Source: a virus (lineage: Duplodnaviria > Caudoviricetes). Taken from it: a stretch of DNA of 64,000 bases. This document shows, in pieces, positions 1-64,000 of this stretch (within the stretch, counting starts at the first letter, position 1; each line of letters opens with the position of its first letter). A program made the position numbers and the translations under genes. The DNA is taken from positions 64,001-128,000 of IMG/VR virus record IMGVR_UViG_3300025357_000008. One strand, written 5' to 3'. Below the pieces are notes generated by a model. It was not told the origin of the DNA. It worked only from the letters and a program-made list of their open reading frames with translations, and did no database searches.

Positions 1-2
1 TC

Positions 3-467
3 ATGCACGTTCAAGGTGATTCCTATATACAAGTTGACGGTAATGTTAATCAGACTGTTGGTGGTGATATGATAACTCATGTTACCGGTAATGCTGAGAT
101 TATTGGTGAAGGTGATTTAGATATTTCAACAAATGGTGCGTTAACTCTTTCAGCAGACTCATTACTTTTAAATTCTGATTTGACTGTAAATGGTAGTGTA
201 ACAGCTCTAGGCGGTATTTCAGCAGTAAGTTCAATATCTTCTTCAACTGGTAGTATACTTGCACCTCTAGGTTCAGTTGCAGTCGGCCTTAAAGCATTGA
301 CACCTGCGGTTCTTGTACCAGGAAACATTTATGATGCAGGACCTTTAGCAACACCTGATACCTCAACACTTTCTGCATTAAGAACTTTCTACGATACACA
401 TACTCATATTGCAATTGGTTTAGGCTCACCAACAGCACCTCCAATACCATTAGACCCATCCGTTTAA
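3..467 (+). CDS. gp5: Baseplate central spike (gp5-like), C-terminal part; 5'-truncated by window edge
   Basis: VxGxxxxx octapeptide beta-helix repeats (VQGDSYIQ VDGNVNQT VGGDMITH VTGNAEII); C-terminal HTH motif; directly upstream of gp25. Confidence 0.8.
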   Translation: MHVQGDSYIQVDGNVNQTVGGDMITHVTGNAEIIGEGDLDISTNGALTLSADSLLLNSDLTVNGSVTALGGISAVSSISSSTGSILAPLGSVAVGLKALTPAVLVPGNIYDAGPLATPDTSTLSALRTFYDTHTHIAIGLGSPTAPPIPLDPSV

Positions 468-468
468 A

Positions 469-476
469 CATAAATA
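469..476 (+). promoter_or_regulatory. T4-type late promoter core CATAAATA
   Basis: Intergenic near-match to TATAAATA, 4 nt before the gp25 ATG. Confidence 0.65.
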
Positions 477-480
477 GAAA

Positions 481-870
481 ATGGCAAGTACAATTATATA
501 CTCAGACTTAGACTTACGTTTCCTTCCCAACCCGGTGACGGGCGATATATCTATGAGTTATAATGAGCAGGCAGTCATTCGTTCTATCAAAAATATTCTT
601 TATACTGCACCGTATGAAAGATTATTTGACCCAACAATCGGTAGCGGTCTACCAGCATTATTGTTTGAGCCAGTTTCACCACTTACCGCAAGTAGTATTG
701 AGGATGAAATTATCAGACTCATTTCAAATTATGAGCCAAGAGCAACAATTTATCAGTTAAACGTTTCTGCAAATGCAGACCAAGATAGTTTTCAAGTCAG
801 TCTTTCTGTTTTTATTGGTAATAATACGACACCGACTGCTATCAATCTAATACTTCAAAGGAATAGATAA
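481..870 (+). CDS. gp25: Baseplate wedge subunit gp25
   Basis: YSDLDL, SIKNILYT..YERLFDPTIGS and YEPRA motifs; 129 aa; between gp5 and gp6. Confidence 0.93.
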   Translation: MASTIIYSDLDLRFLPNPVTGDISMSYNEQAVIRSIKNILYTAPYERLFDPTIGSGLPALLFEPVSPLTASSIEDEIIRLISNYEPRATIYQLNVSANADQDSFQVSLSVFIGNNTTPTAINLILQRNR

Positions 871-2942
871 TGGCTGGAGCCAATTCTAACATTCAACTAA
901 CTGCTCTAGATTTTAACACAATCAAGCAGAACTTTATTACCTATCTACAAGGTCAGTCTCAGTTTAAAGATTACAACTTTGAAGGTTCTGCTATTGATAC
1001 CCTATTAGATGTTTTTGCTTATAATACACAGTATAATGCTTTCTATCTTAATATGGTAGCTAATGAGATGTTCTTAGATTCTGCTGTGCAAAGACGTTCT
1101 GTCGTTTCACATGCAAAGTTATTAGACTATACACCCAAATCTGCAATATGTCCTGTTGCATTTGTCAATATGAGATTTACAGGAGTTACAACACCGACTG
1201 TAACTTTACCATCATTCTCAACGTTTTTGTCTGAACAAATCAATGGCGTTAATTATGTTTTTACAAATATTAATCCTGTAACAGCAACAACAAATTTAAT
1301 TACTAATGTTTGTACATTTTCTAATGTTGCAATATATCAAGGTGTACTTGCATCTTACTCATTTACCGTAGATTCTACAAGTAACCCAACATATACATTT
1401 GAAATACCTGATAATGCTATTGATACCACAACATTGAAAGTTGTTGTTCAACAATCTTCATCAAATTCAGCAGTTCAAGTATATCAACCAGCATCAAATA
1501 GTTTATATTTAAATGGTTCTTCTACTGTTTATTTCATCAATGAAGCATTAACCGGCAACTATGAAATTTCTTTTGGTGACGGTATTCTTGGTAAACAATT
1601 GACAGATGGTAATATTATTACAGTTTCTTATTTGTCAACAGAAGGTTCTTCAGCGGCAGGTGCAAATAGTTTCTCATTAATGACTAACGTTGGTGGATTT
1701 AATGGTATTGTTACTGGTCGTTTACCGGCAACAAAAGGCTCGAACAAAGAATCAATTTCTTCTATTAAGTATCAAGCACCTAAAGCATATGCCGCTCAAG
1801 GTCGTGCAGTAACTAAAGACGATTACATCTCTGCTATTCAACAGAATACATTATTCGGTTTTGATGCTGTAAATGTTTGGGGTGGACAAGAAAATGATCC
1901 GCCAGTATATGGACAAGTATTTGTTTGCTTGAAGCCCTCAGGTGCATATACATTAACTCAAACACAAAAGACTGTTATTACCGACCAGATTTTAAAACCT
2001 ATTTCAATGATGACTGTTGTTCCGGTAATCGTTGATCCTGATTACAATTACATTAAGATAACATCTAATGTTTTGTTTAATTCAACACAGACAACATATA
2101 GTGCATCACAAATGGGTTCTTTGGTATTCAATTCAATTAAGAATTTTGCCAACACAACATTAAACACATTCAATTCAACATTCTCTGGCTCCGATTTAAT
2201 TGTAACAGTTCAAAATGCAAATCAAGCTATTTTAGGTAATGAAATTGCAATTCAGTTACAGAAAAAATTCTATCCTAGTTTAACTGGTTCTCAATCTTAT
2301 AAATTTAACTTTGGTGTACCACTTCAAAGAGGTGTATTACTAAGTGGTGTTACAAGTTATCCTGGCATTCAATACACAGACCCAACAAACATTACAAATA
2401 TAATTGATGGTGTTTATATTGATGAAATGCCAGAAGTGACATCAGGTATTCAATCCATTTCAATTATCAATCCTGGCTATTCATATCAGTATCAACCAAC
2501 TGTCACAATCTATGGTGATGGTACAGGTGCAACTGCTGAGGCAATTCTTACAAATGGCTCTCTGAGTGCAATTAATGTGACTAATGCAGGTTCAGGTTAT
2601 ACTGCCGCTTCAATCGTAATCACACCCGCAATTAATGACACCTCAGGTACAAATGGTGCCGCTGTTGCTACATTAGAAGGTCAGTATGGCACATTACGTT
2701 TATACTATTATAACGGCAATAATGTCAAAACTATTTTAAACCCAAACATCGGTGTAATTGATTATATAAATGGTATCGTCACATTAAATGCATTTAATCC
2801 TGTAAATGTTGACAATGCTCTTGCTCAATTGTCTATTACAGTTAATCCTGCATCGACTATGTTCTCATCTACATACAATAGGATTATCACGGTTGATCCT
2901 AATGATCCGACTGCTATCACAGTTAATGTAACCGCAAAATAA
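870..2942 (+). CDS. gp6: Baseplate wedge subunit gp6
   Basis: LDFNTIK, FKDYNFEGS, NEMFLDSA, YEISFGDG, QGRAVTKDDY motifs. Confidence 0.93.
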   Translation: MAGANSNIQLTALDFNTIKQNFITYLQGQSQFKDYNFEGSAIDTLLDVFAYNTQYNAFYLNMVANEMFLDSAVQRRSVVSHAKLLDYTPKSAICPVAFVNMRFTGVTTPTVTLPSFSTFLSEQINGVNYVFTNINPVTATTNLITNVCTFSNVAIYQGVLASYSFTVDSTSNPTYTFEIPDNAIDTTTLKVVVQQSSSNSAVQVYQPASNSLYLNGSSTVYFINEALTGNYEISFGDGILGKQLTDGNIITVSYLSTEGSSAAGANSFSLMTNVGGFNGIVTGRLPATKGSNKESISSIKYQAPKAYAAQGRAVTKDDYISAIQQNTLFGFDAVNVWGGQENDPPVYGQVFVCLKPSGAYTLTQTQKTVITDQILKPISMMTVVPVIVDPDYNYIKITSNVLFNSTQTTYSASQMGSLVFNSIKNFANTTLNTFNSTFSGSDLIVTVQNANQAILGNEIAIQLQKKFYPSLTGSQSYKFNFGVPLQRGVLLSGVTSYPGIQYTDPTNITNIIDGVYIDEMPEVTSGIQSISIINPGYSYQYQPTVTIYGDGTGATAEAILTNGSLSAINVTNAGSGYTAASIVITPAINDTSGTNGAAVATLEGQYGTLRLYYYNGNNVKTILNPNIGVIDYINGIVTLNAFNPVNVDNALAQLSITVNPASTMFSSTYNRIITVDPNDPTAITVNVTAK

Positions 2943-5900
2943 TGATACAAAGTAATCAGAAAACATCGTTATTCATACCATCGCAGTTACCTGAGTATCT
3001 ATTAGATACTTCGGTATATGGGAATAACTTCGTAACGTTTTTACAAGCGTATTACGAATGGATGGAACTCGCTAATACTGCAAATGCTAATACAGTAACA
3101 GCAGACACTAACGGTACTCAAGGTGCTCTATATGCATCAAAGAGTCTATGGGATTATACAGATATCGACAATACTCTTGAAGGTTTTCAACAGTATTTCA
3201 TTAATGATTTCTTACAATACTTTCCAGCAGAATCTTTAATATCACCTACGACTGCGGTAAAAATTGCAAGACAATTGTACCAGTCTAAAGGTACTCCTGC
3301 ATCGTATCAATTTTTATTCAGAGTTTTGTTTGATTCAGACTTTGATTATTTCTATACAAAAGATGCCGTCCTTGCCGCATCTTCAGGTAAATGGTATGTA
3401 CCTAAGAGTATTCTTTTAGAAACATCAGATACAAACTTTCTTGCCGCAGTCAACTATAAAGTATTTGGTTTAATATCAAAATCATTTGCTACGATTGAAA
3501 ATGTTATTTTAGCTGACAATAAAATTGAAATTTTTATTTCTGATATTGAACGTTTGTTTCAATCAGGTGAATCAGTAACTATTGTAGATGCTTACAATCA
3601 ACCGGTTTACTTTTTAAATGGTAAAGTGGTACCAGCAGGCACATCTGGTGCAGAAACTTTAACTGCTGTTATTCTTGGTCAGATTAGTCAAATCAATATC
3701 AACCCAACAGCGAGAGGTCTTGGTTATAACGTAGCAGACCCTGTGATTGTATATGGTGGTTTGAATTCTAACGTTGCAAACCCTATCGGTGCAATTGCTG
3801 AAGTCGCTTCAGTTACAACAGGTTCTATTCAAGATATTACTGTTGTAAACGGTGGTTATGGATATTCAACATTTCCACCAAGCGGTACATCATTGTATCC
3901 AGGTAATGCAGTTTCATTAATCTCTATTACTGGTCAGCAAACATCAGGCGCAAATGCCACAGTATTTTCTGTAGCATCTGGTGGTGAGGCGACAATAACT
4001 ATACCTATTGATTCTATTGCAGTTTCTAATGGTTTTAGTATTGGTAACACATTAAGTTTCTTATCAGCAAACACAAGTGCAACTGCAAATGCAACACTTG
4101 CAAACGCACTAACATTCACGACAATACAAACTAACCCAATCGGCTCTGTTGTATTGAATAATGGTGGCGGTGGTATTAATTATGTTCCTGTAGCAACAGC
4201 ACAGTCACAGTATGTTTCAAACGACACTACAAACAATATTTTTGGTAGTATCAGTTCTTTAGGTATTCTTGCACCTATTCAGATTGCAAATACAGGAACA
4301 GGATACAGTAATAATGACACAATCGTATTTACCGGTGGCTGCGGTTACGGTGCAAATGCAAGAATTCGTGTTAATGCAAATGGTAGTATCATAAACGTAA
4401 TGTATCAAGCAGTTTCAGGTTTACCGTCTGGCGGCTTAGGATATATTGGTGGTGTTTTACCTAACGTTTCAATACAAACATCTACAGGTTCTAATGCTAC
4501 TATATACGTACCTGGCACACTTGGTTCTGGTGCAACATTCTCATTAACATTGAATCAGATTGGTGCAGTAAGTTTAATTAATGTACTGCAAGGCGGTGAA
4601 GATTATACTGGAACACCGAATGTATCATTAGTCGTACAAGATATCGTAGTCTCAAATCTTATCCCTGCACTTCTACCAGTATCTGGTGAGACCTTGTATC
4701 AAGGTGCAAACGTAAACGTTGCATCATATATCGCAACTGTTAACTCTATTTCATTGCTACAGCAAAACGGAAACCCTAGACAATCTGTTTATAATTTAAG
4801 AGTCTTCAATTATACATCACAACCTAATCCAACATTACCATTATTAATTAAAAATACAAATATTAATATGGCAATGGTTAATACTGCTTACGGTGCTACT
4901 CAGTATACACAGTCAGTTTATAATCAATATGGTGTAAGAAACTATGGTGACGGTAACGCAAGAGCATCAACAAAATATTTAAACGGTCTTGTGATTGGAC
5001 AAGGTCAATATCTAACATCATCAGGTCAACTAAGTTCTTATGATGTATTGCAGAGTAAAGACTATAATAATTTCACATATCAAATTACAGTTGAGAAAGC
5101 AATCTCTGATTATAGAAGTACTCTATTAAATCTATTGCACCCATCCGGTGTTAATTTAATTGGCAGATATGCGCTAAAATCTAACACAGTAGTTGATTAT
5201 GATATCGAAGATACACTAGCAACACAAGAATATTTGAACAAGATTATAGGCACAAATAACGTACAAGGTACGATGAACGTTGCAGACAATCAGTATGTCG
5301 CATCTGCTAATATATACTATCACGGTTATAATTATCAAGCAAACGATATTCTGACAATCTCTGGCGGTACAAGTGTATACCCTGCACAAATTAAAGTCTT
5401 AAGTGTATACGGTTCAGCAAATGACATCGGTTCATTTGTGGTAAGTAATGTCGGTAACTATAGCGTATTCCCAACAAATCCAGTTTCAGTTACTGGTGGG
5501 GCAGGTTCGACTGCACAGTTTAATCTGGCACCAGATTATCTAAACTACTCTGCAAATACAATCTCTATTGGTTATTTACCAACTGGTAACTATATAAACT
5601 ATTCTACGTTTGTAACTATGACAACCGCAAACAATTTCAATGTTGTTTCAGGTCTTGCTAATGTAAACTTTGCCGCTAATACAGTTACATTAACGGATAG
5701 TGTTTGGGTACGATTTGCGAATGTTGCTTATGGTACCGGTAACAGTAATTCAAGCATAATAAATATATCAAACGTATACACAGATGTATATAACATCATC
5801 AATGATGGTGTCTATTCAAACACTTCTTATCCGATAATTGATGTCATTCAAACGAATGATGTCTTAAGTAGTAATGGTTATTATATCGGTAAAGTTCAGT

Positions 5901-6109: not shown

Positions 6110-6112
6110 TAA

Positions 6113-7597
6113 ATGTCAACAGTAAAAATTACAGCATTACCATCACTATCAGCTTTTGCTGGTGCCAACACCGGCAACGCAACTTTTATTGGTGTTGATA
6201 TATCGCAAGATAAAACAGTTCAATTCACAGGAACGACTCTTGCTCAACAATTGTATCTAAACAATTCTTTAGTTGTTGGTAATAATACTATTCAGTTACC
6301 AAATACTATTGCACAGTTCTCAGGCAATTCAAATAGTTATTTGCAAATTAATGCACAAAACTTTAATCCTAACGGGTCTATTGATGTCGTTTTAACTGCT
6401 GATGATGGTACTGATTTGGGCGGTTATATTGATTTGGGTCTGAATAATTCTCAATTTAATGCTAATGCCGTTGGTCAAACATCACAGTTTCCGCATGACG
6501 GTTATTTGATTGTCGATGGACCTGGTGCGAATTCTACAGGTAATCTTGTAATAGGTACTGCAAATCCTGGTACTAATGTTGTATTTGCAGTTGGTGGTTA
6601 TCAGTCAAACAATATCGTTGCAGTTGTAGCCGCTAACGGTATTGTAATGAACACTAATACGTTTATTACTTTTGCAGATGGCACAAAAATAACAACAGCA
6701 AACGTAATTACAAATTTAAACACATATGCATACTCTGCTTATTCTGAAGCAAACGCCGCATGGACACTTGCAAATGCCGCTTTTGCTTTAGCTAATACAG
6801 ATACCTCTGGTCTTGTTACTACGATTAATTTTGTAAATGCAATGGCTAATACGACAAACTTAGCGTACACACAAGCTAATAATGCCGCTTCGTTTGCTAA
6901 TGCCGCTTTCACAGAAGCAAATACAACATATTCTTCATTAATTTCAGTCGCAACTTTTTTAAATTCAATTGCTAATACTGCTAATTTAGCATACACCGAA
7001 GCCAATTCCGCATCTGCATGGGCTAATGCTATCAATGCAACACAGAATACTAATATAACTGCCGCTTATGCCCAAGCAAACGTTGCAAACTCAATTGCAA
7101 ATACAGCAGTTCAGAATACATCAACTATTCAAATAAACAATTTAAATGTATCAGGTAACGTAGTTTCATCAGGAAATATTAATGGTGCTTACATGTTTGG
7201 TAATCAAAGTTACATGACAGGTTCTGTTACTGCAACTACTATTATTGCAAACTCGTATACATACAGTTCAAATACAACAGCAACTGCAATTCAAACTGGT
7301 AGTAGAACAACTTTAGTGTATGCAAACGGAACTTCTGGTGTCATTGTAGGTTACAATGCAAGTGCATTACAACATCAAACAGGTTATGTATTTACTGTGT
7401 ATAACAGCTCAGTTTTACATCCTTCTGATATTGTTATTGTTTCTGTTCAGAGTACAAACTGCCCAGTACTTCAAGTTTCTACAGCAAATACTAGAGCAGG
7501 AAGTTTTGATGTTGCAGTTTACAATGCTTCAAGTGCCGGTAACGATGCCGCATACACAATGAATCTTAACTTTGGTATTATTAGGGTCGGATCTTAA
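6113..7597 (+). CDS. Putative baseplate-attached fibre protein (KITALP N-terminus, ANxA[FY] heptads)
   Basis: 494-aa N/T/A-rich ORF with coiled-coil-like repeats; shares a QNF..D..YIDLG domain with 28160 and 31571. Confidence 0.6.
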   Translation: MSTVKITALPSLSAFAGANTGNATFIGVDISQDKTVQFTGTTLAQQLYLNNSLVVGNNTIQLPNTIAQFSGNSNSYLQINAQNFNPNGSIDVVLTADDGTDLGGYIDLGLNNSQFNANAVGQTSQFPHDGYLIVDGPGANSTGNLVIGTANPGTNVVFAVGGYQSNNIVAVVAANGIVMNTNTFITFADGTKITTANVITNLNTYAYSAYSEANAAWTLANAAFALANTDTSGLVTTINFVNAMANTTNLAYTQANNAASFANAAFTEANTTYSSLISVATFLNSIANTANLAYTEANSASAWANAINATQNTNITAAYAQANVANSIANTAVQNTSTIQINNLNVSGNVVSSGNINGAYMFGNQSYMTGSVTATTIIANSYTYSSNTTATAIQTGSRTTLVYANGTSGVIVGYNASALQHQTGYVFTVYNSSVLHPSDIVIVSVQSTNCPVLQVSTANTRAGSFDVAVYNASSAGNDAAYTMNLNFGIIRVGS

Positions 7598-7598
7598 A

Positions 7599-7606
7599 GA
7601 TAAATA
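7599..7606 (+). promoter_or_regulatory. Late promoter core GATAAATA
   Basis: Intergenic, 4 nt before the gp8 ATG; same geometry as at gp25. Confidence 0.65.
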
Positions 7607-7610
7607 GAAT

Positions 7611-8999: not shown

Positions 9000-9008
9000 A
9001 GGAAAAAA

Positions 9009-16643: not shown

Positions 16644-19580
16644 ATGGCTACGATTTTTACAGCAACAATTTTACCAACTCTAACATATGCAAATACTTTT
16701 GTAGATTGGTTTACAACAACGAATACAATTGTTGTTGATTTTAATAACTTCTCTGCTAATGCATATGCAAAAAACACAGGTACTCTGTATCTTAATGAGG
16801 CTACTACTGCTTTAGTTGTAGGTAACGGTGTTGCACAATTCGGTAATCAAGTTCAGATTACTGGTACAGGTTCTTATCTAACAGTTGATAATAATATTGT
16901 AATGAACTATGGACAGTTGGTAGTTTCAAATGCCAACTCAAGTATTATTGCTTCTGGTGTCGTACAAGTCGGTAATACAGTATATGCTAATGGTGCTAAT
17001 ACAGGTTTGTTTGTTGCTAACAATGCAACTTTAAATTCAAACGCATACATTACAGGTAACGCATATTTTGGTAAACAAATTTTTGTTACCGGCCCTGTTA
17101 CTCTTAACGCATTAACTGTTCAAGGTACCACATCAATACAAAACACTTTGACGATTAGCGGTACAACAAACGTTAATAATACTCTTACTGCAACCGGTAA
17201 CGTAAATGCTTTATGGTTCAATGCGACAAACGGACTTACTGGTACTCTTGCAAACATTAGCGGTTATGCTAACTCTGGTCGTTTAGCTACAACATTAACT
17301 GGTCAGATTGGTACTCAGTTGTATGTTGGTGATTCAATCTATACAACAAATAGCACATTCGCAAATATAAACTATTCTAATACAGTTGTTGCTAACACAT
17401 CTGTAACGTCAAATGTCATCACAGCAAATACAATTCAAGGAAACTTGAATGTCAATACTGCAACTGTAACTGCATCTGTTGGTAATATTGTTTCTTTAAA
17501 TGCAACTACTATTACAACAGGTAGTTTGTATGCTAACAATATTACAGCATATCAAAATTTAAACGCTAACAATGAATATGCAAACGTAATCGTTGCTAAT
17601 ACATCTATTCTCACACCAGCATTAAATGTTTCGGTATCGTTGACAGCAAATACTGCTAATGCATACTTCAGTAATGTATTCGCAACAAACTTAACATTGA
17701 GTGGTAATCTTGCAATCAGTTACCCAATTGTTTCAACATCAAATTCATTTACATTAAACGCTAACAATACCACAGCAACACCTTTTGCACAGTTTGTTAT
17801 CAATCGTGGTACAGGTTCTAATACTGCACAAATTCAATGGTATGAATCTGGTAAACAATGGCAGATTAATGATGTAACAACAAATCAGTTCTATTCAATT
17901 CTAACTTCTGAAGTTGCAAACAGTAGCCTAGTATTAAATAGTACATCTAATATTGCAACATCTCAAGCAGTCTATACTGCAAATCTATTTGCTCAAGCCG
18001 CATTTAACGTTGCAAATGCCGCATATACATCTGCAAATAACGTTGCCCCACAGATTCAACCTGCATTTAATCAAGCAAACTCTGCTTCAAATATTGCCAA
18101 TTCAGCATTTGCAGAAGCTAATATTGTATACACATTAGCAAACACAATAAGCAACACTACTAACTCAGCATACGCAAGAGCAAATGCATCCGCTAATTTG
18201 TTTACTGCAAACGGTAATACAGCATCACCAAGCAACGGCGGTATATCTTTTGCAAGCCTTTACGGTGAGTCTATCAATGCCTCAGGCAATACAATTACGA
18301 TTGGCACTTCACAAGATTTAAGGTCTTCTGCATCACCAACATTCAACACACTAACACTAACAGGCAACTTAGCAGTCGGACAAGGTGGTACAGGTTCTAC
18401 AACAGCCGCTGGTGCTGTTCAAAATCTATTACCTGCAAACACTAATCAAATCGGTTTCTTCTTGCAGACAACAGGTCCTGGTAACTTTGGATGGATTTCT
18501 AATACTGCTAACAGTCTTGCTTATACAGTACCTACTGGTGTTGCGGCAACTAATAATAACGTTCAACTAGCATTGAATGATTTGTATTTTAACAAAGCAA
18601 ACTTAGCATCACCACAGTTTACTGGAACACCTAATTCAGTAACTCAAGCAACTACAACACAGAATACTACTATTGCAACTACTGGCTTTGTAGGTGCTCT
18701 CGCAAACTCTGGTTATTATTTCTCTCACAATATTACCGGTACTGCTCAGTACGCAAACAATTTATATCAAACAACATATAGTACAGCAGGTAGTGTTCCT
18801 TATCAATCCGCTCAAGGTACAACAGCATTTACTGCCGCTGGTGCAACATCTCAAGTTCTGATTGGTGGTACTTCACCATCATGGCTGAATATGAGTTCTA
18901 TGACAGTCGGTGCCGCTACTCTTGCAAATGCAACATCTAATATTGCCGGTGGTGGTGCAGGTCAGATACCATATAACACAGCATATGGTGCGACATCATT
19001 TATTGGTGCCGGTACTGCTGGTCAAGTTTTAGTTTCTGCTGGTACAGGAACACCAGTGTGGTCAAGTTCCGTACAGCAAAGTTCAGTCACAGCATCTGGC
19101 GCTGGTATATTTTCAACTTTAACATCTAACAATGCAGTAAATGCAGTTAGCATTAATGCAACAACTTCAGCAAATATTGCAAACGTCACAGCAAGTTTCA
19201 TCACTAATACTGGTAACTATTATAGTGGCGGATTAATCAGCGTAGTCGGTAATATTATTGCTTACTCTGGTTCTGATAGAAAATGGAAAGAAAATATCAG
19301 AGACATTGAAGGTGCTCTTGATATTGTTGATGCTGTTGGTGGTAAATTATTTGATTGGACAGATGAATATATTGCACAGAATGGTGGTCTGAATGATTAT
19401 TCAATGCAGAAATCTGATTTCGGTGTTGTTGCTCAAGACCTGAGAGAAGTTTTCCCAGTTGCAACAAGGGTAAGACCAGACGGCTCTCTTGCAGTTGACT
19501 ATGAAAAATTATGTGCTGTAGCATTTGCCGCTATCAAAGATTTACGTGCAGAAGTTGAAGCATTAAAGCAATCAAAGTAA
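16644..19580 (+). CDS. Tail fibre with C-terminal peptidase-S74 chaperone
   Basis: ANTFVDWF N-terminus; beta-rich shaft; SDRKWKENI (from 19272)...GVVAQDL...VDYEKL plus terminal coiled coil. Confidence 0.82.
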   Translation: MATIFTATILPTLTYANTFVDWFTTTNTIVVDFNNFSANAYAKNTGTLYLNEATTALVVGNGVAQFGNQVQITGTGSYLTVDNNIVMNYGQLVVSNANSSIIASGVVQVGNTVYANGANTGLFVANNATLNSNAYITGNAYFGKQIFVTGPVTLNALTVQGTTSIQNTLTISGTTNVNNTLTATGNVNALWFNATNGLTGTLANISGYANSGRLATTLTGQIGTQLYVGDSIYTTNSTFANINYSNTVVANTSVTSNVITANTIQGNLNVNTATVTASVGNIVSLNATTITTGSLYANNITAYQNLNANNEYANVIVANTSILTPALNVSVSLTANTANAYFSNVFATNLTLSGNLAISYPIVSTSNSFTLNANNTTATPFAQFVINRGTGSNTAQIQWYESGKQWQINDVTTNQFYSILTSEVANSSLVLNSTSNIATSQAVYTANLFAQAAFNVANAAYTSANNVAPQIQPAFNQANSASNIANSAFAEANIVYTLANTISNTTNSAYARANASANLFTANGNTASPSNGGISFASLYGESINASGNTITIGTSQDLRSSASPTFNTLTLTGNLAVGQGGTGSTTAAGAVQNLLPANTNQIGFFLQTTGPGNFGWISNTANSLAYTVPTGVAATNNNVQLALNDLYFNKANLASPQFTGTPNSVTQATTTQNTTIATTGFVGALANSGYYFSHNITGTAQYANNLYQTTYSTAGSVPYQSAQGTTAFTAAGATSQVLIGGTSPSWLNMSSMTVGAATLANATSNIAGGGAGQIPYNTAYGATSFIGAGTAGQVLVSAGTGTPVWSSSVQQSSVTASGAGIFSTLTSNNAVNAVSINATTSANIANVTASFITNTGNYYSGGLISVVGNIIAYSGSDRKWKENIRDIEGALDIVDAVGGKLFDWTDEYIAQNGGLNDYSMQKSDFGVVAQDLREVFPVATRVRPDGSLAVDYEKLCAVAFAAIKDLRAEVEALKQSK

Positions 19581-20206: not shown

Positions 20207-22329
20207 TGTCATCAAATACAGTTAATGTACAGATACTAAGGTCCTATGGATCTTATCAACCAACAAACTTACTTGATGGGCAGTTAGCGTATTCCTTTCA
20301 ATCTAATACACTATACATCGGTACAAATAGTAATGGTATTGTTACTATTGGTGGTGTCACACCTTTAGCTCGTATTCAAACTGCCTTCAATGCGGCAAAT
20401 AGTTCAGGTGATTTTGCAAACTCTGCTTTCACACGTGCTAATCTTGCCTATGCGGCCGCTAATGCCGCTGGTTCATCAACAACAATAAACTTAGCATATC
20501 AAACTGCTAACTCGGCATTTAGTCAGGCTAATCTTGCCTATGCGGCCGCTAATGCCGCCGGTTCATCTACTACAACTAACAATGCTTATGCAACTGCTAA
20601 CTTAGCTTTTGCACAAGCGAATGCCGCTTTCAATGCGGCTAATAGTGGTGTAACTGCATCATATGCTTTTAATCAAGCTAACAGCGCATACAATCAAGCC
20701 AACGTAGCATTTGCGGCGGCTAATGCGGCAGGTTCTTCTACGACTGTAAATGCGGCCTTCTTAACTGCTAACTCTGCTTTTACACAATCAAATAACGCAT
20801 ATAACAAAGCAAACTCAGCAAACGTTCTAGCACAGTCTGCTTTTGGTGCCGCTAACGTAGGTAACACATTTGTTACTACTGGAGGTACTGTAACAGGTAA
20901 CGTAACAGTTTCAAACAATCTAACTGTATCTGGTAACTTATATGTACTAGGTAACTTAACTGCTATCAATACAACACAAGAAGAAACAAACGCACCGTTA
21001 ATCTTCTTAGCAAACAATAACACATCTTCTGATACAGTTGACATCGGTTTTGTTGGTAACTATAATGCAACAGGTAATGCGTTTACTGGTTTGTTTAGAA
21101 ACCCAACCCTTAAAGAGTTTATATTCTTTCAGAACTATGCATCACCTATTGGCTCAAACAATCTAATTAATATTAGTGACCCTAGTTTTGCATATGCAAA
21201 CGTGTACTCAAATTACTTCAAAGGTAATGTAATAAGTCACGGTGTAGATGTATTCTATTATTCTAACTCTGCTTTCTCAGTTGCAAATACGGCATCATCA
21301 AATACTGTAGCACTTCAAGGTATTGAAAATGCACAGAATACAAACATTGCGTATTCATGGACAACTGCAAATGCCGCTTTTGCAAATGCAAACTCTGCAA
21401 TTCTATATCAAACGGCAATTAGTAATTCGGTAAACAGTATTGCTGTTGGTGGTGCACCTGTACAGAACGCTCAAGTATGGTCTACACTAACTGTATCACA
21501 AGTCTTTGATGCAATTCTGTTCCCAACAATCGGTCCTACATATACAATACCTACAATATCTTTAAGCGGTACTGCTTCTGGTACTGTAGAAGTCGGTTCA
21601 ACAATCACTCAGACAATGACTCTGACTGGTACTAAGAACGATGCTGGTGCATTCCTTGCATTGTATATTCAACGTAATAGTGCGAACATTGCTACGATTA
21701 GTAACCCATCAGGTACAGCAACAACTAATATTGCATCTCAGTATGGCTATAGCGATCCTAACAATCAAAACTATTACTATACATTAAGTAATACAGATAC
21801 TGCTATTGCAACAACTGGTACATTCACATGGGCGGGTTACGGTAACTATAATGCTGGTGTTGCTAAGTTAACAAACAAAGGACAGACAGATGCAAACGGT
21901 GCTCAACTTCGTTCAACTGTTTATCCTCAAGCCGCTGGTTCAGCGTTCGGTTCAGGTTCTTATTCAGTAACTGGTATCTATCCATACTTTTGGGGTGTAT
22001 CATCAACGCAACCGACAGCCGCAAGTATTGCATCAGCAATTCAAGCAGGCACAGCAAACAAAGTACTTGCAGTTGGTTCAGGAACACTTACAATCACATT
22101 CAATGCAAGTTCTCAATACGTTTGGCTTGCAGTACAAAATAGCTATGCAACAAAGACAACATGGTATAATACTGCTCTAAATAACGGTAGTATTGGTGCA
22201 GGTCAATTTATATTGAGTCCTGTAACACAAGCAGTCACTTCACCAACATCTCTCTGGTCTGGCGTTAATTATAATATGTACATCTCTGGTTACTCAACGA
22301 CAACTAGCGGCTCAATACAGTTCTCATAA
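20206..22329 (+). CDS. Fibre protein (Mtd-N-like head, ANxA[FY] coiled coil, Ig-like C-terminus)
   Basis: VQILRS...LLDGQLAYSF..NTLYIG N-terminus; heptad repeats; YPYFWG domain. Confidence 0.7.
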   Translation: MSSNTVNVQILRSYGSYQPTNLLDGQLAYSFQSNTLYIGTNSNGIVTIGGVTPLARIQTAFNAANSSGDFANSAFTRANLAYAAANAAGSSTTINLAYQTANSAFSQANLAYAAANAAGSSTTTNNAYATANLAFAQANAAFNAANSGVTASYAFNQANSAYNQANVAFAAANAAGSSTTVNAAFLTANSAFTQSNNAYNKANSANVLAQSAFGAANVGNTFVTTGGTVTGNVTVSNNLTVSGNLYVLGNLTAINTTQEETNAPLIFLANNNTSSDTVDIGFVGNYNATGNAFTGLFRNPTLKEFIFFQNYASPIGSNNLINISDPSFAYANVYSNYFKGNVISHGVDVFYYSNSAFSVANTASSNTVALQGIENAQNTNIAYSWTTANAAFANANSAILYQTAISNSVNSIAVGGAPVQNAQVWSTLTVSQVFDAILFPTIGPTYTIPTISLSGTASGTVEVGSTITQTMTLTGTKNDAGAFLALYIQRNSANIATISNPSGTATTNIASQYGYSDPNNQNYYYTLSNTDTAIATTGTFTWAGYGNYNAGVAKLTNKGQTDANGAQLRSTVYPQAAGSAFGSGSYSVTGIYPYFWGVSSTQPTAASIASAIQAGTANKVLAVGSGTLTITFNASSQYVWLAVQNSYATKTTWYNTALNNGSIGAGQFILSPVTQAVTSPTSLWSGVNYNMYISGYSTTTSGSIQFS

Positions 22330-26873: not shown

Positions 26874-27908
26874 ATGAGTAGAATATCATCGTCAAGTGGC
26901 TTTGGGTTTTCAGGTGTTGGAATGGCTACTGCCAACTTAAAACCGATTCCAGTAACTGTTAATTATGTTTTGGTTGCCGGTGGTGGGTCAGGTGGTACTT
27001 TTGGTGGCGGTGGTGCTGGTGGTGTATTGTCTGGTCAAGTTACTTTTCCTAAAAAAGGTTCGACTGTAACAGTAACTATTGGTGGTGGAGGTGTTGCCGC
27101 AAATAATGGAGGACCTTTAGTATATCCTGGTAATGCTGGAGGTTATTATGTGAGAGGTACTAGCGGTTCAGGTTCTACAATATCGAATCCTTGCACATTA
27201 GGATCTGTAAGTTCAACAGGCGGTGGTGCCGGACGTGGTGGGTGGCCAGGTATGTGTTCAAGTTTTGGTGCATTAGGTGGAGGGTCTGGTGGTGGTGGTG
27301 CATCTGGCGGTAATCCTCAAAGTGCGCCCGGAGTACCAGGTCAAGGAAATCCTGGAGGTTCTGGAACCACCCCTTCAGGTATGTTTTTCGGTAGTGGTGG
27401 TGGAGCAGGAAGTGCAGGGACTTCAGGTGTAGGGGCAAATGGTGGTTCTGGACGAGTAATAACTATTATGGGTCCTAGTTCACCTGTAACAGTTGGTGGT
27501 GGAGGTGCGGCTGGCGGTTGCCAAGGGTGCAGACCAACATTTTATCCTAGTCCGTATTTTTTTTATACTGCAGGCGGTACAGGTGGCTCTGGTGGGGGCG
27601 GTAATGGTGGTAGTGGAGGTGTGCAAGGTGCATATGCGACTGGACGTACTGCTGGTACTGTAAATACTGGGGGTGGGGGTGGTGCTGGCGGATTTACAGG
27701 TTGGAACTTTATACAACCACCAACACATTCATGTTCTCCAAATGAGGAATGGTTTCCTGGTATGAATGGTGGTTCTGGTGTCGTCTTCATTTCAGCGAAT
27801 ACTGCAAAGAAAGGAACTGCCGGACCACCAACCGTTTTCACAACAGGAACTGACGGCCTAGGTAACACTTGGTTTAAATTCACTTCTTCTGGTACATATC
27901 GAGTATAA
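26874..27908 (+). CDS. Glycine-rich putative adhesin, paralog 1
   Basis: YVLVAGGGSGG, GGGAGG, NTGGGGG, GGSGVV motifs; ATG 26874 lies 2 nt after the upstream stop and is preferred over 26793. Confidence 0.72.
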   Translation: MSRISSSSGFGFSGVGMATANLKPIPVTVNYVLVAGGGSGGTFGGGGAGGVLSGQVTFPKKGSTVTVTIGGGGVAANNGGPLVYPGNAGGYYVRGTSGSGSTISNPCTLGSVSSTGGGAGRGGWPGMCSSFGALGGGSGGGGASGGNPQSAPGVPGQGNPGGSGTTPSGMFFGSGGGAGSAGTSGVGANGGSGRVITIMGPSSPVTVGGGGAAGGCQGCRPTFYPSPYFFYTAGGTGGSGGGGNGGSGGVQGAYATGRTAGTVNTGGGGGAGGFTGWNFIQPPTHSCSPNEEWFPGMNGGSGVVFISANTAKKGTAGPPTVFTTGTDGLGNTWFKFTSSGTYRV

Positions 27909-51243: not shown

Positions 51244-52014
51244 ATGCAAGTGCAAAACAGAACCGATTTTACTAACTATTGCTTACGTAGGCTTGGTGCA
51301 CCTGTAATTGAAATTAACGTTGACCCAGACCAAATACAAGACCGTATTGACGATGCTCTTCAATATTGGCAAGATTATCACTATGATGGTATTCAAAAAT
51401 GTTATTGGATTAAACAAATTGATTCTACTGATATTGCTAATCAATATCTAGATTGTTCAAATGCGGTAGATTCAAATAACAATTCAGTTCAAATTATTGG
51501 TGTTTCAAGAATCTTTCCGTATACAGATTCACAGGCAAACGTCAATATGTTTGACTTAAGATACCAATTACGTTTAAATGAACTGTACGATTTCACATCA
51601 GCTTCATACGTTAACTTCACATTAACACAACAGCACCTTCGTTCACTAGAACTTATGTTCACTGGTGAAATACCAATTCGTTTTAACAGACACATGCAAC
51701 GTCTTTATATTGACCAAGCATGGGGTAACGAAGAAGCTCCTGCAGGTGAAGTTATTGTTGCAGAAGCATATGCAATTATTAATCCAGACCAATATAATAA
51801 AGTTTGGGACGACCGTTGGTTAAAACTATATGCAACAGCATTAATTAAAAAACAATGGGGTAATAATCTTGCTAAATTCTCAGGTCTTCAATTACCTGGT
51901 GGTGTTAAACTAGACGGACAAAAGATTCAAGAAGATGCTGACAATGAAATTAAGTATCTACAAGAACAAATGCAGAATGAATATGGTGCACCGTTAGAAT
52001 GGTTTATGAATTAA
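51244..52014 (+). CDS. gp13: Neck protein gp13
   Basis: YCLRRLGAPVIEINV..DQI.DRIDDAL, WLKLYATALIKKQWG.NL.KF, LPGGV.LDG. Confidence 0.95.
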   Translation: MQVQNRTDFTNYCLRRLGAPVIEINVDPDQIQDRIDDALQYWQDYHYDGIQKCYWIKQIDSTDIANQYLDCSNAVDSNNNSVQIIGVSRIFPYTDSQANVNMFDLRYQLRLNELYDFTSASYVNFTLTQQHLRSLELMFTGEIPIRFNRHMQRLYIDQAWGNEEAPAGEVIVAEAYAIINPDQYNKVWDDRWLKLYATALIKKQWGNNLAKFSGLQLPGGVKLDGQKIQEDADNEIKYLQEQMQNEYGAPLEWFMN

Positions 52015-52015
52015 C

Positions 52016-53886: not shown

Positions 53887-53888
53887 CT

Positions 53889-55987: not shown

Positions 55988-55998
55988 AAGTGCTGGTG

Positions 55999-56006
55999 CA
56001 TAAATA
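55999..56006 (+). promoter_or_regulatory. Late promoter core CATAAATA
   Basis: Intergenic, upstream of gp18; SD AAGGAG. Confidence 0.7.
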
Positions 56007-56058
56007 CCTTTATTGGTATAATCTGCCAAAAAGAACAAAATAATTCAAGGAGAAAACA

Positions 56059-57753: not shown

Positions 57754-57756
57754 ATA
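57749..57756 (+). promoter_or_regulatory. Late promoter TATAAATA (perfect)
   Basis: Exact T4 consensus overlapping the gp18 stop, upstream of gp19. Confidence 0.8.
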
Positions 57757-57773
57757 ACAAGTAGGAGAACACA

Positions 57774-58322
57774 ATGACATTCAACGTATCAGAATTTAGA
57801 GCACAATTGACAGGGGACGGTGCTCGTCCTAATCTGTTCAATGTGACTCTAACATTACCAAATATTGTAAAGAACGCTACAAATGCTGGCAAGAAATTAC
57901 AATTCATGGCTAAAGCCGCTCAGTTACCAGGTTCGACTGTTAACAATATACCGCTACACTACTTTGGTCGTGAAATTAAATTTGCAGGCAATAGAACATT
58001 CGCAGACTGGACATTAACAATCATCAATGATGAAGATTTCGTTATTCGTTCAGCTATGGAGAACTGGCTAAATAATATTAATAGCCATGCCGGCAACTTA
58101 CGTTCAGCAAATGCTGTAGGTCCAGCGAACTACACATGTGATGCTACTGTAACTCAGTACGGCAAAGCTGGCGACAATATTCAAGCATATGACTTTGTTG
58201 GTATGTTCCCAGTTGATGTTTCAACAATCGACTTAAATTGGGATACAACCGATTCAATTGAAGAGTACACGGTAACGTTTGCTTATCAATACTGGACAAA
58301 CAAAACAAGTACAGACGCTTAA
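57774..58322 (+). CDS. gp19: Tail tube protein gp19
   Basis: GARPNLF, GREIKFAGNRTFADWT.TIINDEDF, IEEYTVTFAYQYW. Confidence 0.96.
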   Translation: MTFNVSEFRAQLTGDGARPNLFNVTLTLPNIVKNATNAGKKLQFMAKAAQLPGSTVNNIPLHYFGREIKFAGNRTFADWTLTIINDEDFVIRSAMENWLNNINSHAGNLRSANAVGPANYTCDATVTQYGKAGDNIQAYDFVGMFPVDVSTIDLNWDTTDSIEEYTVTFAYQYWTNKTSTDA

Positions 58323-58331
58323 TTTTTCGTT

Positions 58332-58363
58332 GAAGGCCCTTCGGGGTCTTCTTTATGTTTTTT
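58332..58363 (+). terminator. Rho-independent terminator with C(UUCG)G tetraloop
   Basis: GAAGGCCC-TTCG-GGGTCTTC stem-loop (one G-U pair) followed by TTTATGTTTTTT. Confidence 0.88.
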
Positions 58364-58384
58364 GTGAAATGATAAAAAGGCAAT

Positions 58385-60109: not shown

Positions 60110-60118
60110 GAGACTTAA

Positions 60119-60673
60119 ATGACTAGCAGAGCAGTTATAGATTATACAATGGAAGACGATTCTCTTGGCGTAAGAGATGCTTTATATTCTGCAATTCAAG
60201 ACCGTGTTATGGCACATATTGAAGCAAAGAAAGCAGAAATAGCGGCAAACTTTATTACACCACATCAAGAAGAGACAGATGTTGAGGTCGATGAAGACCT
60301 AGAAAATGAGATGAAATATTATGCTAATGTACCAGAAGGTGTTGAGGTATTTGTACCAAAACAATCTATTACAGAAGCAAAAGATAAAAAGCCTAAAGAA
60401 GAGCACCCATGGAGAATGGACAAAGACCGTGAAGGTACTGGCTACCATGAAATCAATTCTGTGCGTCCTAAGACAGCATTAGTAAATGGTGTTCCTAAGA
60501 ACCTAGGTCTTGAGCATGATGGTGTTCATAGTCACGCTTTTGAGAATCAACATGAGGCAGAGAAAGCCGCATTTGATTTAGCGAGCCGTGGTCACATGTG
60601 TACTCATCACTGCCCACAAGGTTACGCTAAAGCGGTTATTCAACCACATCACTCAATGGCGATTGGTTATTAA
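60119..60673 (+). CDS. Prohead core-like protein (gp67 position) with His-rich extension
   Basis: Directly after the portal gene; helical N-terminus (AIQDRVMAHIEAKKAEIA), then an acidic stretch. Confidence 0.5.
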   Translation: MTSRAVIDYTMEDDSLGVRDALYSAIQDRVMAHIEAKKAEIAANFITPHQEETDVEVDEDLENEMKYYANVPEGVEVFVPKQSITEAKDKKPKEEHPWRMDKDREGTGYHEINSVRPKTALVNGVPKNLGLEHDGVHSHAFENQHEAEKAAFDLASRGHMCTHHCPQGYAKAVIQPHHSMAIGY

Positions 60674-61155
60674 TGAAATCAATTAGAGAGTTTATTGATA
60701 TTAAATCATCCGAGGCGGAAACGCTTTCGGAGGACTCTCTATTGGAAGCCCCACAAGGTAAGGAAGTCTCTGCAACGAAGACTGACTTACCTTCTCTTTT
60801 GACGTTACAAAGAAAATCAATACGCCGTCTACCAAACGGTGAAAAGGTTGCTTTGTACTATGCCAGTAAGATTAATAAATATGTAACAATACCATATTCA
60901 GACGTTCATTCTGAAGAATATGAAAAAGGTAACAATTTAGAATGTCTTCAAGACATAGTAGAGAGCAATAAAGCTAATGCAATTATTTTTGAAGATGGTA
61001 AAACGATGATGGTAAATATTGCAACTGCAAAGAAAGTCTTAAGACTACACGAGTCTTTAGATGCCACAAATCGTTTAAAGATTTATAGAATGGTTGATGA
61101 GAGCAAAGAACAGTTTAAGAAAGTAGTTGGTTTTGCTTTCACACATATAAAATAA
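60673..61155 (+). CDS. Hypothetical head-associated protein
   Basis: 160-aa ORF in the head cluster; L-x-E motifs near the N-terminus. Confidence 0.6.
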   Translation: MKSIREFIDIKSSEAETLSEDSLLEAPQGKEVSATKTDLPSLLTLQRKSIRRLPNGEKVALYYASKINKYVTIPYSDVHSEEYEKGNNLECLQDIVESNKANAIIFEDGKTMMVNIATAKKVLRLHESLDATNRLKIYRMVDESKEQFKKVVGFAFTHIK

Positions 61156-61163
61156 GGTAAAAA

Positions 61164-61676
61164 ATGGCAAATCAATATACATACCAAATTATAAAAGATA
61201 ATGTCAATCACACTATCATTAAATTGACTGGTCAGTTTGATGGTAGCGGTCAAGAATCTAATCTTAATAGAATTCAAGCAAACACACTTTACGGCGCTTT
61301 AAATACTGCCGGTGGTGCATTGTCAGGTGGTGGTACATCATTACCATTTTACGGATTATTAATCAATCGTGTTTGGTATGATGTTAGCGGTACAGGTAAC
61401 GCACAATTAGTTTGGTCTTCAGATACAGCACAAACTATATTCTATATGACTGGCGGACACGAATATGATGCTATGGGAAATTGGGTAACTATTCCTAACA
61501 ATGCATATGGTCAAGCTAACTGTAATGGAAATATTGGTATCATAACTCACGGTATGTCTGCAAACGATGGTTACAGTATTGTAGTAGAAGTACGTAAAGA
61601 TAACATCTATTATCAACGTGGACATCTTGATGATCCTGCTTCATTCAATTATGGCATTTATAGAACTACACCTTAA
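61164..61676 (+). CDS. Hypothetical virion protein, tandem paralog A
   Basis: Similar to 61679 at both ends. Confidence 0.7.
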   Translation: MANQYTYQIIKDNVNHTIIKLTGQFDGSGQESNLNRIQANTLYGALNTAGGALSGGGTSLPFYGLLINRVWYDVSGTGNAQLVWSSDTAQTIFYMTGGHEYDAMGNWVTIPNNAYGQANCNGNIGIITHGMSANDGYSIVVEVRKDNIYYQRGHLDDPASFNYGIYRTTP

Positions 61677-61678
61677 TC

Positions 61679-62269
61679 ATGGCTAACAAATATACTTACC
61701 AAGTTTTAAGAGATACTACAACAGATGCTGTGATTAAACTCACAGGCAGTTTTGATGGTACTGGACAAGAAGCAAACACATCTAGAATTCAAGCAAATAG
61801 TCTTGCTGGTGCGATTGCAACTAACGGTTATCTTGTAGCAAATTCTACAAATTCTTTTGCTAATACACCTTTATCATATTACGACCTTCAGTTAACCGGT
61901 TTAAAATATTTTGTCAACTTCCCAACAAATACTGTTGGTGGTGTCGAAATCTTTTGGTCTGGCAACGGCACATCATTCTCAACACAGTATGCAAACTCTG
62001 CAACGATAGTGCATTTGAATGGTCAAGGTGAGATGGGTATGGGAGAACAATTACCATCTATTCTAAATAATTCTGGTGCAACAGCAAACGGATATATTAT
62101 ACCAGCAAACGTTGGTCTTGGTGATATCGGTGTTACTACACAAGGTGCAACTGCAAACTGTGCGTATACATTAATATTGCAAGTGAGAAAGAATAACGCT
62201 CAATATCAACGTGGTCAGTTCAATGATCCGGCCGCATTTAACTACGGAATATACAAACAAATACCATGA
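61679..62269 (+). CDS. Hypothetical virion protein, tandem paralog B
   Basis: Similar to 61164; ATGA overlap with gp21. Confidence 0.7.
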   Translation: MANKYTYQVLRDTTTDAVIKLTGSFDGTGQEANTSRIQANSLAGAIATNGYLVANSTNSFANTPLSYYDLQLTGLKYFVNFPTNTVGGVEIFWSGNGTSFSTQYANSATIVHLNGQGEMGMGEQLPSILNNSGATANGYIIPANVGLGDIGVTTQGATANCAYTLILQVRKNNAQYQRGQFNDPAAFNYGIYKQIP

Positions 62270-62910
62270 AACTAATCAAAGAAATTACAGAATCGGTAAA
62301 CTATATTACCGAAGAAAAAGATGGAAAGAAAACTCTATTCATCGAAGGTCCTTTTTTAGTTACTGAAAGAGAAAACAAGAATAAACGTCTGTATGAACAC
62401 GGTACAATGCTTAAAGAAGTTAAGCGTTATACTGAAGAGTACATCAATAAAAACCGTGCATACGGTGAATTAGGTCATCCAGACACACCTTCGATTAACT
62501 TAGACCGTGTATCACACATCATTACTTCTCTCAAAGAAGACGGTCATCAGTTTATCGGAAGAGCAAAAATACTTGATACCCCAATGGGACAGATTGCCAG
62601 AAACCTTATCGAAGGTGGTGGTCAACTAGGAGTCTCATCTCGTGGTATGGGTTCATTGAAGAATGTTAATGGAGTCAACATTGTTCAAGACGATTTTTAT
62701 CTAGCCACAGCGGCAGATATTGTAGCTGATCCATCAGCACCAGGTGCGTTTGTACAAGGTATAATGGAAGGCAAAGAGTGGATGTTAGTAGACGGTGTAT
62801 GGACAGAACGTCAATTAGAAGAATCTAAGAAGATGATTCGTCAAGCTACACCTAGAGAGATTGAAGCTGTCGGCTTGAAAATCTTTGAAAACTTCATCAA
62901 AAAATTATAA
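62266..62910 (+). CDS. gp21: Prohead protease gp21
   Basis: GELGHP, INLDRVSH, LGVSSRGMGSL, ADIVADPSAP.AFV.GIME. Confidence 0.97.
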   Translation: MKLIKEITESVNYITEEKDGKKTLFIEGPFLVTERENKNKRLYEHGTMLKEVKRYTEEYINKNRAYGELGHPDTPSINLDRVSHIITSLKEDGHQFIGRAKILDTPMGQIARNLIEGGGQLGVSSRGMGSLKNVNGVNIVQDDFYLATAADIVADPSAPGAFVQGIMEGKEWMLVDGVWTERQLEESKKMIRQATPREIEAVGLKIFENFIKKL

Positions 62911-62912
62911 AA

Positions 62913-62920
62913 TATAAATA
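62913..62920 (+). promoter_or_regulatory. Late promoter TATAAATA (perfect)
   Basis: Exact consensus upstream of gp22; SD AGGAG. Confidence 0.85.
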
Positions 62921-62950
62921 TACCAATACGAATCATAGGAGATTTACAAA

Positions 62951-64000
62951 ATGGGAAAATTCAATCTGTCAGATGCCGCTAAAGCTATTTTGAACGAAGG
63001 CTCAAAAGAGACTTTAGAAGGTAACGTAAAACAAAAGATGGGTCAAAGAGGATCCGACAAGCACCCAAGCGGTGAAGTTGGAAAAGATGCCGTTAAGCCA
63101 AATATTGCTTACGGTTCTAAATCTGCTGGTATGGTAGGTCAATCACCAGAAGAAATGGATGATGCATTACCAGATTACTTAAAAGGCACACCAACAGCAA
63201 CAGCACCAGGTGCAACACCACCTGTAGGTTCAGAAAAAGACGGTGTTGGTTATTCTAAGCCAAAAGGTCAACCACAAGAAACAATGGGACGCAAAGACAT
63301 TATGGTACCTGCACAAGATACAGCTAATCAATACGATGCTATCCGTGACCGTGTTGCATCAAAATTAGCAAAACAAACAATGAAGCCAAATCCAGGTGCT
63401 ACATTCCAATCATATGGTGAAGGTATTGACCTTTCTGATGACGTAAATGCGTTGCTAGAAGGTGAATCTTTATCTGAAGAATTCAAATTAAAAGCAACAA
63501 CAATCTTTGAAGCCGCTGTTACATCACGCATCGAAGCAATTGTTGAAGAAGTTGAAGCAAGTTTAGTAGAACAATACGAAGCTGGTATCGAACAAATCAA
63601 AGAAGAACTAGCAGAAAAACTAGACCAGTATATTGATTACTTTGCAGAACAATACATGATTCAAAACGAATTGGCAATTGTTTCCGGTCTACGTGCAGAA
63701 ATTGCCGAAGACTTTATGACAAGCCTGCGTAACGTATTCATGGAACACAATATTGACATTCCAGAAGAGCAAGTTCAAGTTGTCGAAGAGTTGACAACAA
63801 GAGTTGAAGAACTAGAACAAGCCTTGGATGAAGAAGTCAAAAACGCTGTTGCTTTAAAGAGAGCACTAAGCGAACAAGTAAAAATTGAGGCTATCCACAC
63901 AGCTTGTGAAGGCCTAACTCAGACTCAGGAAGAAAAATTAAAATCACTCGCAGAGGGTGTTGAATTTACTACTGAAGAAGAATTTAATGCTAAACTAAAC
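62951..64000 (+). CDS. gp22: Prohead core scaffold gp22; 3'-truncated, absent from the ORF track
   Basis: Manual translation MGKFNLSDAAKAILNEG...LSEEFKLKATTIFEAAV...; open to the window end; follows gp21. Confidence 0.9.
   Translation, partial: MGKFNLSDAAKAILNEGSKETLEGNVKQKMGQRGSDKHPSGEVGKDAVKPNIAYGSKSAGMVGQSPEEMDDALPDYLKGTPTATAPGATPPVGSEKDGVGYSKPKGQPQETMGRKDIMVPAQDTANQYDAIRDRVASKLAKQTMKPNPGATFQSYGEGIDLSDDVNALLEGESLSEEFKLKATTIFEAAVTSRIEAIVEEVEASLVEQYEAGIEQIKEELAEKLDQYIDYFAEQYMIQNELAIVSGLRAEIAEDFMTSLRNVFMEHNIDIPEEQVQVVEELTTRVEELEQALDEEVKNAVALKRALSEQVKIEAIHTACEGLTQTQEEKLKSLAEGVEFTTEEEFNAKLN

Follow-up and report, generated by a model that had tools for sequence, protein, structure and literature searches.

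Restriction-site survival at doubled terminal C or G across a clade of T4-like phages points to a protection tied to CC/GG

What decides which GATC sites persist in a phage genome that has lost most of them? The question is raised by a 64,000-nucleotide stretch of the Caudoviricetes record IMGVR_UViG_3300025357_000008 (the window), which comprises bases 64001-128000 of a 170,261-bp IMG/VR metagenomic contig rated complete by CheckV. A first-pass annotation of the window, made from its letters, had reported about 39 GATC sites, each with a G before it or a C after it, and had proposed that a GATC-cutting host enzyme purged every site not shielded by an overlapping modification. We confirm the observation and find that it belongs to a broader, well-replicated phenomenon in which the sites of many unrelated words survive where a terminal C or G is doubled, and that the proposed mechanism appears right in outline and too narrow.

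Site counts were compared with two null models. For the genome, 241 open reading frames were called (96% of its length) and synonymous codons were shuffled within each gene 150 times, which keeps every protein and the codon usage of each gene; for the window, an order-2 Markov model was used as a second null. Counts are written below as observed/expected, HGATCD stands for unflanked GATC, and flanked GATC means GGATC or GATCC. The window holds exactly 39 GATC sites, all of them flanked (TGATCC 14, AGATCC 7, GGATCA 6, GGATCT 5, CGATCC 3, GGATCG 3 and GGATCC 1), and the examples first annotated are found at 1896, 7590, 9723 and 16206. HGATCD is absent where the Markov model expects 105.7 copies, while flanked sites are present at 39/34.4. 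The whole genome holds 134 GATC sites, of which 131 are flanked, and the three exceptions (genome positions 31947, 46204 and 56828) lie outside the window. Genome-wide, HGATCD occurs 3 times against 230.0 ± 10.9 in the codon-preserving shuffles (z = -20.8), each unflanked hexamer is found in 0-2 copies where 9-82 are expected, and GGATC/GATCC stands at 0.74 of the shuffle expectation. The codon choices that had been read from the window are borne out across the genome: GAT makes up 66% of all Asp codons, drops to 23 of 208 (11%) before C-starting His, Leu, Gln or Arg codons and is used in 66 of 121 cases (55%) before Pro, and Ile ATC is used in none of the 360 places where an unflanked GATC would arise. 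Plain GATC avoidance and RGATCY avoidance, both of which the annotation had set aside, are excluded.

The same state recurs among relatives, of which IMG/VR holds hundreds of contigs. Among 129 related loci of at least 9 kb, 42 retain flanked survivors only (pooled HGATCD 18/1620, flanked 535/648), 4 have lost GATC altogether, and the others are partially purged or unpurged. Related contigs fetched whole are labeled G001-G007 and G010, with G000 denoting the genome that holds the window. Two near-complete contigs have no HGATCD at all, G001 (177 kb, complete; HGATCD 0/387, flanked 168/186) and G002 (HGATCD 0/238, flanked 114/113). G003 keeps a residue (HGATCD 15/222, flanked 105/97), and 10 of its 15 unflanked sites fall within one 12-kb block (about 47-59 kb), as would be expected of DNA acquired by recent recombination and still to be purged. 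When 102 contigs are pooled, unflanked GATC stands at 26/2478 and one-flank GATC at 681/847, and the corresponding values for GTAC are 12/484 unflanked and 379/334 flanked.

We find that at least 12 restriction-type words besides GATC, in this genome and its relatives, are purged with survival almost only at a doubled terminal C or G. All 24 copies of GAATGC in the genome, and all 10 in the window, have G before or C after, with HGAATGCD at 0/49.4 and flanked GAATGC at 26/20 across the genome. CAGTG is preceded by C in 28 of its 32 genomic copies (17 of 19 in the window), with DCAGTG at 4/130 and CCAGTG at 28/44. CTGCAG is reduced to five copies, compared with 51 in shuffles, each flanked as CCTGCAG or CTGCAGG, and GACGC is flanked in 13 of 17 genomic copies (HGACGCD 4/76). 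An unbiased scan covered every 4- to 6-mer for survival next to a single 3' neighbor; it returns 18 matches in the genome itself and 0 in ten codon shuffles, and 17 of the 18 retain a C behind a terminal C or a G behind a terminal G. The third base after GATCC is free, and only the adjoining C or G matters; since the base beyond the doubled C is free, the protective context is a dinucleotide, and protection is limited to a context of 2-3 bases.

This generality bears on two explanations confined to GATC. One is a narrow form of the annotated shield, in which a GGATC (AlwI-type) or GGATCC (BamHI-type) methyltransferase covers GATC only; the genome does carry one methyltransferase-like gene (526 residues, TSPPY motif, weak match to PF01555), which lends it some substance. 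We consider it very improbable, as the same flank rule holds at the other words just described, a single flank is enough to protect, which excludes GGATCC specificity, and the gene is missing from both contigs with zero HGATCD and present in unpurged ones. The other is Dam/MutH-type counter-selection of the kind proposed for enterobacteriophages, in which under-representation of GATC is a classical observation. It predicts no flank dependence and nothing for GTAC, GTGCAC or GAATGC, and no Dam gene was found in the genome, so that we give it scarcely any weight here.

Relatives that purge other words obey the same rule at those words. HGATCD is kept in G004, G005 and G010, yet other words there, GTGCAC and CTCTTC among them, obey the flank rule: GTGCAC is found almost exclusively as GGTGCACC, G004 and G005 included, and G010 follows the rule at CTCTTC, GCATGC, GAGCAC and CAGCTC. 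It is found at GAGAC in G003 and at GACATC in G002 and G004, and G007 keeps GTAC only as GTACC or GGTAC. G000-G010 share core genes and differ in their purged words. Because the flank rule is independent of which sites a phage purges, it points to a property of the phage DNA rather than of one enzyme, and because the purged sets differ between relatives, host-specific pressure is indicated and different hosts or strains are implied. The protection would then belong to the clade, and the enzymes that its members have met would differ in their sensitivity to it.

If CC/GG is protected, words that themselves hold CC or GG should never be purged, and this prediction was checked against three outgroup T4-like phages, Stenotrophomonas DLP6, Sinorhizobium phiM7 and Synechococcus S-MbCM100. 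In six clade genomes, none of 51 minimal purged words holds CC or GG, although about 36% of the tested words do; in the outgroups, 23 of 60 purged words hold one or the other (for example GGCC 0/1102, CCGG 2/200, CCAGG 2/197 and GGTACC 0/70). Among palindromic hexamers in G000, purging affects 19 of the 48 that lack CC/GG and none of the 11 that hold it (Fisher p = 0.011). None of the outgroups follows the C|C flank rule. DLP6 lacks GGCC on both strands, where 1102 copies are expected; a review table (PMC8228603) gives its DNA as restriction-resistant, and with its genome outside the CC rule we do not use it as support. As to the other two, phiM7 purges RGATCY, CGATCG, GGCC, TGCA and many hexamers, and S-MbCM100 purges GTNNAC, CCGG and GGTACC.

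The outgroups also weigh on the proposal that no modification is involved, and that the enzymes themselves discriminate against a doubled terminal base or that GG/CC steps distort the DNA and so prevent cleavage. Type II enzymes with degenerate specificities using H and D do exist, GDGCHC being one, and the loss of GGATC as well in some relatives indicates that enzymes differ. A dozen unrelated specificities, palindromic and asymmetric, would nonetheless have to share one rule in this clade only, and the outgroup phages under restriction purge CC/GG-containing and flanked sites freely, which leaves this proposal with a slim chance.

The breadth of the loss is considerable. Short type II-like words are counter-selected relative to the codon-preserving null, and G000 has lost 19 palindromic hexamers wholly or almost wholly, among them AAGCTT, ACTAGT, ATCGAT and TCATGA (each 0 where 28-40 are expected), GCATGC, GACGTC, TGCGCA, CGTACG, CAGCTG, GAGCTC, AGATCT, TGATCA, CGATCG and AGCGCT. 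Such wide site loss is the signature of heavy restriction pressure. We arrive at a reading, to which we assign a probability of roughly 0.6, in which host restriction would act together with a clade-wide protection tied to CC/GG, most simply a covalent modification at CpC. Packaged DNA of this abundant, uncultured T4-like clade would be protected from many type II enzymes wherever a site overlaps CC/GG; a post-replicative covalent mark at CpC, borne most likely by the 5' C or its paired G and probably installed by the phage rather than the host, would block an enzyme when the marked base is the terminal C or G of its site. Selection by host enzymes would then remove unprotected sites only, such that a GATC cutter would have removed HGATCD, with GGATC and GATCC selectively neutral and at about their expected frequency. 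Of the annotated proposal, a GATC cutter combined with an overlapping shield would thus remain the best fit, and what falls away is a shield specific to GATC or GGATC.

The position of the mark is suggested by the geometry of survival. The strongest and most regular protection is seen where a C follows the last C of the site, as in GATC, GTAC, GAATGC (either strand), GACGC, GAGAC and CTCTTC. A C before the first C of the site protects patchily: it does so for CAGTG on one strand and for CTGCAG with both flanks, and it does not for CGCG, CGWCG or CCTCTTC. Regular 3' doubling with patchy 5' doubling favors the 5' C of CpC, or its paired G, as the marked base. Four-base sites would need only one protected strand, and GTGCAC and GCATGC would need both. 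It is conceivable, at well under even odds, that the clade modifies every CpC/GpG step, about one third of its cytosines, by enzymology unrelated to the known systems, namely DNA methyltransferases and the TGT/DpdA, ThyA-like and TET pathways; such enzymology, with a true dinucleotide specificity, would be new, and its imprint on restriction-site avoidance would by itself be enough to reveal it. An analogous same-base rule for A/T-ended sites was considered and rejected, as A or T flanks give AGATCT, TGATCA, TCATGA and the like no protection.

Several observations weigh against a CC/GG-linked covalent mark, and we collect them here. The case for modification rests on sequence statistics. The shield is not universal, in that CGCG (0/81), GCWGC (2/211) and CGWCG (2/89) are purged whatever their flanks; as GCWGC is purged regardless of flanks, the shield fails for it. 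GGATC has also been lost in two relatives, G006, which has no GATC at all, and G007, in which a single GGATCC is left. A C on either side of the C of a site can protect, and a single modified position accounts for this only with enzyme-specific sensitivity. Finally, profile searches of the genome, run with positive controls, detect no Dam (PF02086), no C5-methyltransferase (PF00145), no TGT/DpdA (PF01702) and no ThyA-like protein (PF00303; only ThyX is present), no protein with a DPPY or PCQ motif is conserved across the clade, and the 526-residue methyltransferase-like gene introduced above is absent from G001-G005 and present in contigs with unpurged GATC.

That gene, the only N6/N4-methyltransferase-like one in the genome (136970-138550, outside the window), is inserted between a peptide deformylase gene and a winged helix-turn-helix gene, encodes a motif I-like DPSSGWAG followed by TSPPY, and is found in 271 IMG/VR stretches. 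Missing where the pattern holds and present without a purge, it cannot be the shield and was ruled out. Two highly or widely conserved proteins were likewise rejected as modifiers. A 265-residue protein resembling GT-A glycosyltransferases, highly conserved in the gp46-gp45 gap, has homologues in DLP6 and phiM7, which purge GGCC without a shield. The GP88/DUF7227 protein (genome 27838-28503) carries invariant Cys clusters in alignment, C-x13-C-x2-C and C-x8-C-x2-C-x2-C, has thousands of environmental homologues and is clade-specific relative to the outgroups; its confident AlphaFold model (predicted local distance difference test score 82) has no significant PDB match, and G010, in which the flank rule holds, lacks the gene. 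Sequence searches of PDB, NCBIfam, PHROGs and ESM Atlas returned no function for the uncharacterized clade-specific proteins. An enzyme-like, clade-specific cluster near the right end of the genome, comprising a GT2 glycosyltransferase (genome 160573-161298), an adjacent 289-residue glycosyltransferase-like protein, a Methyltransf_24 protein (163688-164245) and a 432-residue P-loop protein (165896-167194), is a candidate, and a role in modifying glycans instead of DNA is just as possible for it.

The gene search also turned up a nuclease that could make GATC loss a matter of self-avoidance, in which a DenA/EndoII-like GIY-YIG enzyme cuts host GATC and the phage has purged its own targets. A 144-residue SegE/GIY-YIG protein (genome 13359-13793) is encoded directly after nrdB, the position of T4 denA (endonuclease II), and is 80-85% identical in the purged G001 and G002, with no match in the unpurged G004. 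The gene does not predict the purge: it is present in 42 contigs of 9 kb or more, of which 4 are unpurged and 17 partly purged, and G010 carries it (74% identity) with no GATC purge. The flank rule and the other words are left unexplained as well, and we rejected this nuclease as the GATC agent, self-avoidance being most unlikely.

The lack of a recognizable conserved DNA-modifying enzyme in the phage clade favors an alternative in which the hosts install the CC/GG mark, through a solitary conserved methyltransferase of very short specificity that marks the progeny and so protects them in the next host. Clade members purge very different sites, as expected of different hosts or strains, yet share the rule, and we know of no bacterial lineage with CC-dinucleotide methylation, a matter on which our search was not exhaustive. 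We regard host installation as unlikely, though worth keeping in view.

Comparison with known systems places a mark tied to CpC in context. Restriction-site avoidance is well established in phages, for instance in the loss of GATC from staphylococcal phage K and in palindrome avoidance generally. The present case resembles it in that short type II-like words are counter-selected and the purged set varies between related phages, and differs in that one flanking base decides, for many unrelated words, and in that CC/GG words are exempt clade-wide. Overlapping methylases are also known to protect sites, as when Dam or M.BamHI methylation blocks GATC cutters; here too a site survives only under what would be an overlapping modification motif, but the motif suggested by the flanks spans just two bases, and the clade conserves no methyltransferase gene to match it. 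A conventional case of this kind may occur in G004, where CTGCAG mainly survives as GCTGCAGC (7 of 13 remaining sites), which overlaps GCWGC; this suggests a GCWGC methylation shield in the phage or its host and provides a conventional positive control for the logic of flank footprints. Chlorovirus M.CviPII (CCD) and other near-dinucleotide cytosine methyltransferases come close to CC in specificity and methylate a large share of cytosines, but M.CviPII belongs to a virus of eukaryotic algae and is a C5-methyltransferase paired with a nicking enzyme, of which no homologue was found here. In T-even phages, glucosylation depends on the neighboring hydroxymethylcytosine; these too are T4-like phages with broad protection from restriction, but all of their C is replaced, so that no site avoidance is needed, and the ThyA-like family of dCMP (deoxycytidine monophosphate) hydroxymethylases is absent here.

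Closer to a short-context mark are three systems described in phages: GpC-specific 5-carboxymethylcytosine in the Synechococcus cyanophage S-B43, which involves CmoX (PMC12783734), C5-cytosine hypermodification through a phage TET pathway (PMC8256090), and the preQ0 that phage CAjan carries at two distinct motifs of its DNA (PMC7544227). In these, as would be the case here, a phage marks bases in a very short context and the mark guards against restriction; they rely on a C5-methyltransferase homologue or DpdA, neither of which is detectable in this genome, and the motif here would be CC/GG. Full-text literature searches found no prior description of flank-dependent GATC survival, although one may exist. 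Three features appear to be new: the CC/GG context, the footprint that it leaves across the clade on more than a dozen restriction words, and the lack of a recognizable modifying enzyme.

Were a CC/GG-linked mark confirmed, a very common group of environmental phages would carry an undescribed DNA modification that defeats many restriction enzymes; homologue searches with two conserved clade genes return thousands of environmental protein clusters each. The flank dependence of site avoidance can moreover reveal a modification motif from sequence alone, in any virome, and a CC-specific modifying enzyme, if real, would find use as a reagent in footprinting and in the control of restriction digests. 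Features of the window are collected in Table 1.

Table 1. Features of the window, in window coordinates
Feature	Position	Strand	Basis or remark
Whole window, no HGATCD, 39 flanked GATC	1..64000	.	counts, Markov model, PHROGs
Surviving GATCC (TGATCC)	1896..1900	+	site count
Sole GCWGC of the window (GGCTGCGG)	4338..4342	+	genome 2 vs 211
Surviving GGATC (GGATCT)	7589..7593	+	site count
CCAGTG	19053..19058	+	flank count, codon shuffles
GAATGC then C	20619..20625	+	flank count, codon shuffles
CCTGCAGG, flanked CTGCAG	51739..51746	+	other two CTGCAG of the window at 27568 and 45166
Sole GGATCC of the window, flanked on both sides	63050..63055	+	site count

By PHROGs annotation, the genes of the window form the structural region of a T4-like myovirus, with baseplate wedge, fibers, large terminase, tail sheath and portal; the window has a GC content of 37.6% and the genome one of 37.1%. 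The portal shares about 53% identity with its counterparts in Synechococcus T4-like phages, with no closer isolate in the phage collection searched. Outside the window the genome encodes T4-type replication proteins (gp32, gp41, gp44/62, gp45, gp46/47, gp59, UvsW, UvsX and RegA) together with NrdAB and ThyX. Hints as to the host are weak and point to Betaproteobacteria, a D-Ala-D-Ala carboxypeptidase gene weakly resembling those of Burkholderiales.

Some local features of individual words are also apparent. The 10-mer GCGAATGCCG occurs five times in the fiber-gene region (window positions 20619, 22665, 32014, 32140 and 32221) and explains a large part of why GAATGCC is in excess (20 observed, 11.5 expected). 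Of the 28 surviving CCAGTG in the genome, 24 are ACCAGTG; either the shield at this word would depend on one more base upstream, or the word would lie in a Thr-Ser codon pair that recurs. ACGT is partly depleted in G001, G003 and G005 (observed/expected about 0.3-0.4), least in AACGT/ACGTT contexts, and this flank preference is weak, untidy and not explained by the CC/GG rule. GCSGC is 3.2-fold over-represented in the genome because Ala-Ala and similar codon pairs have been recoded from GCW-GCN to GCS-GCN.

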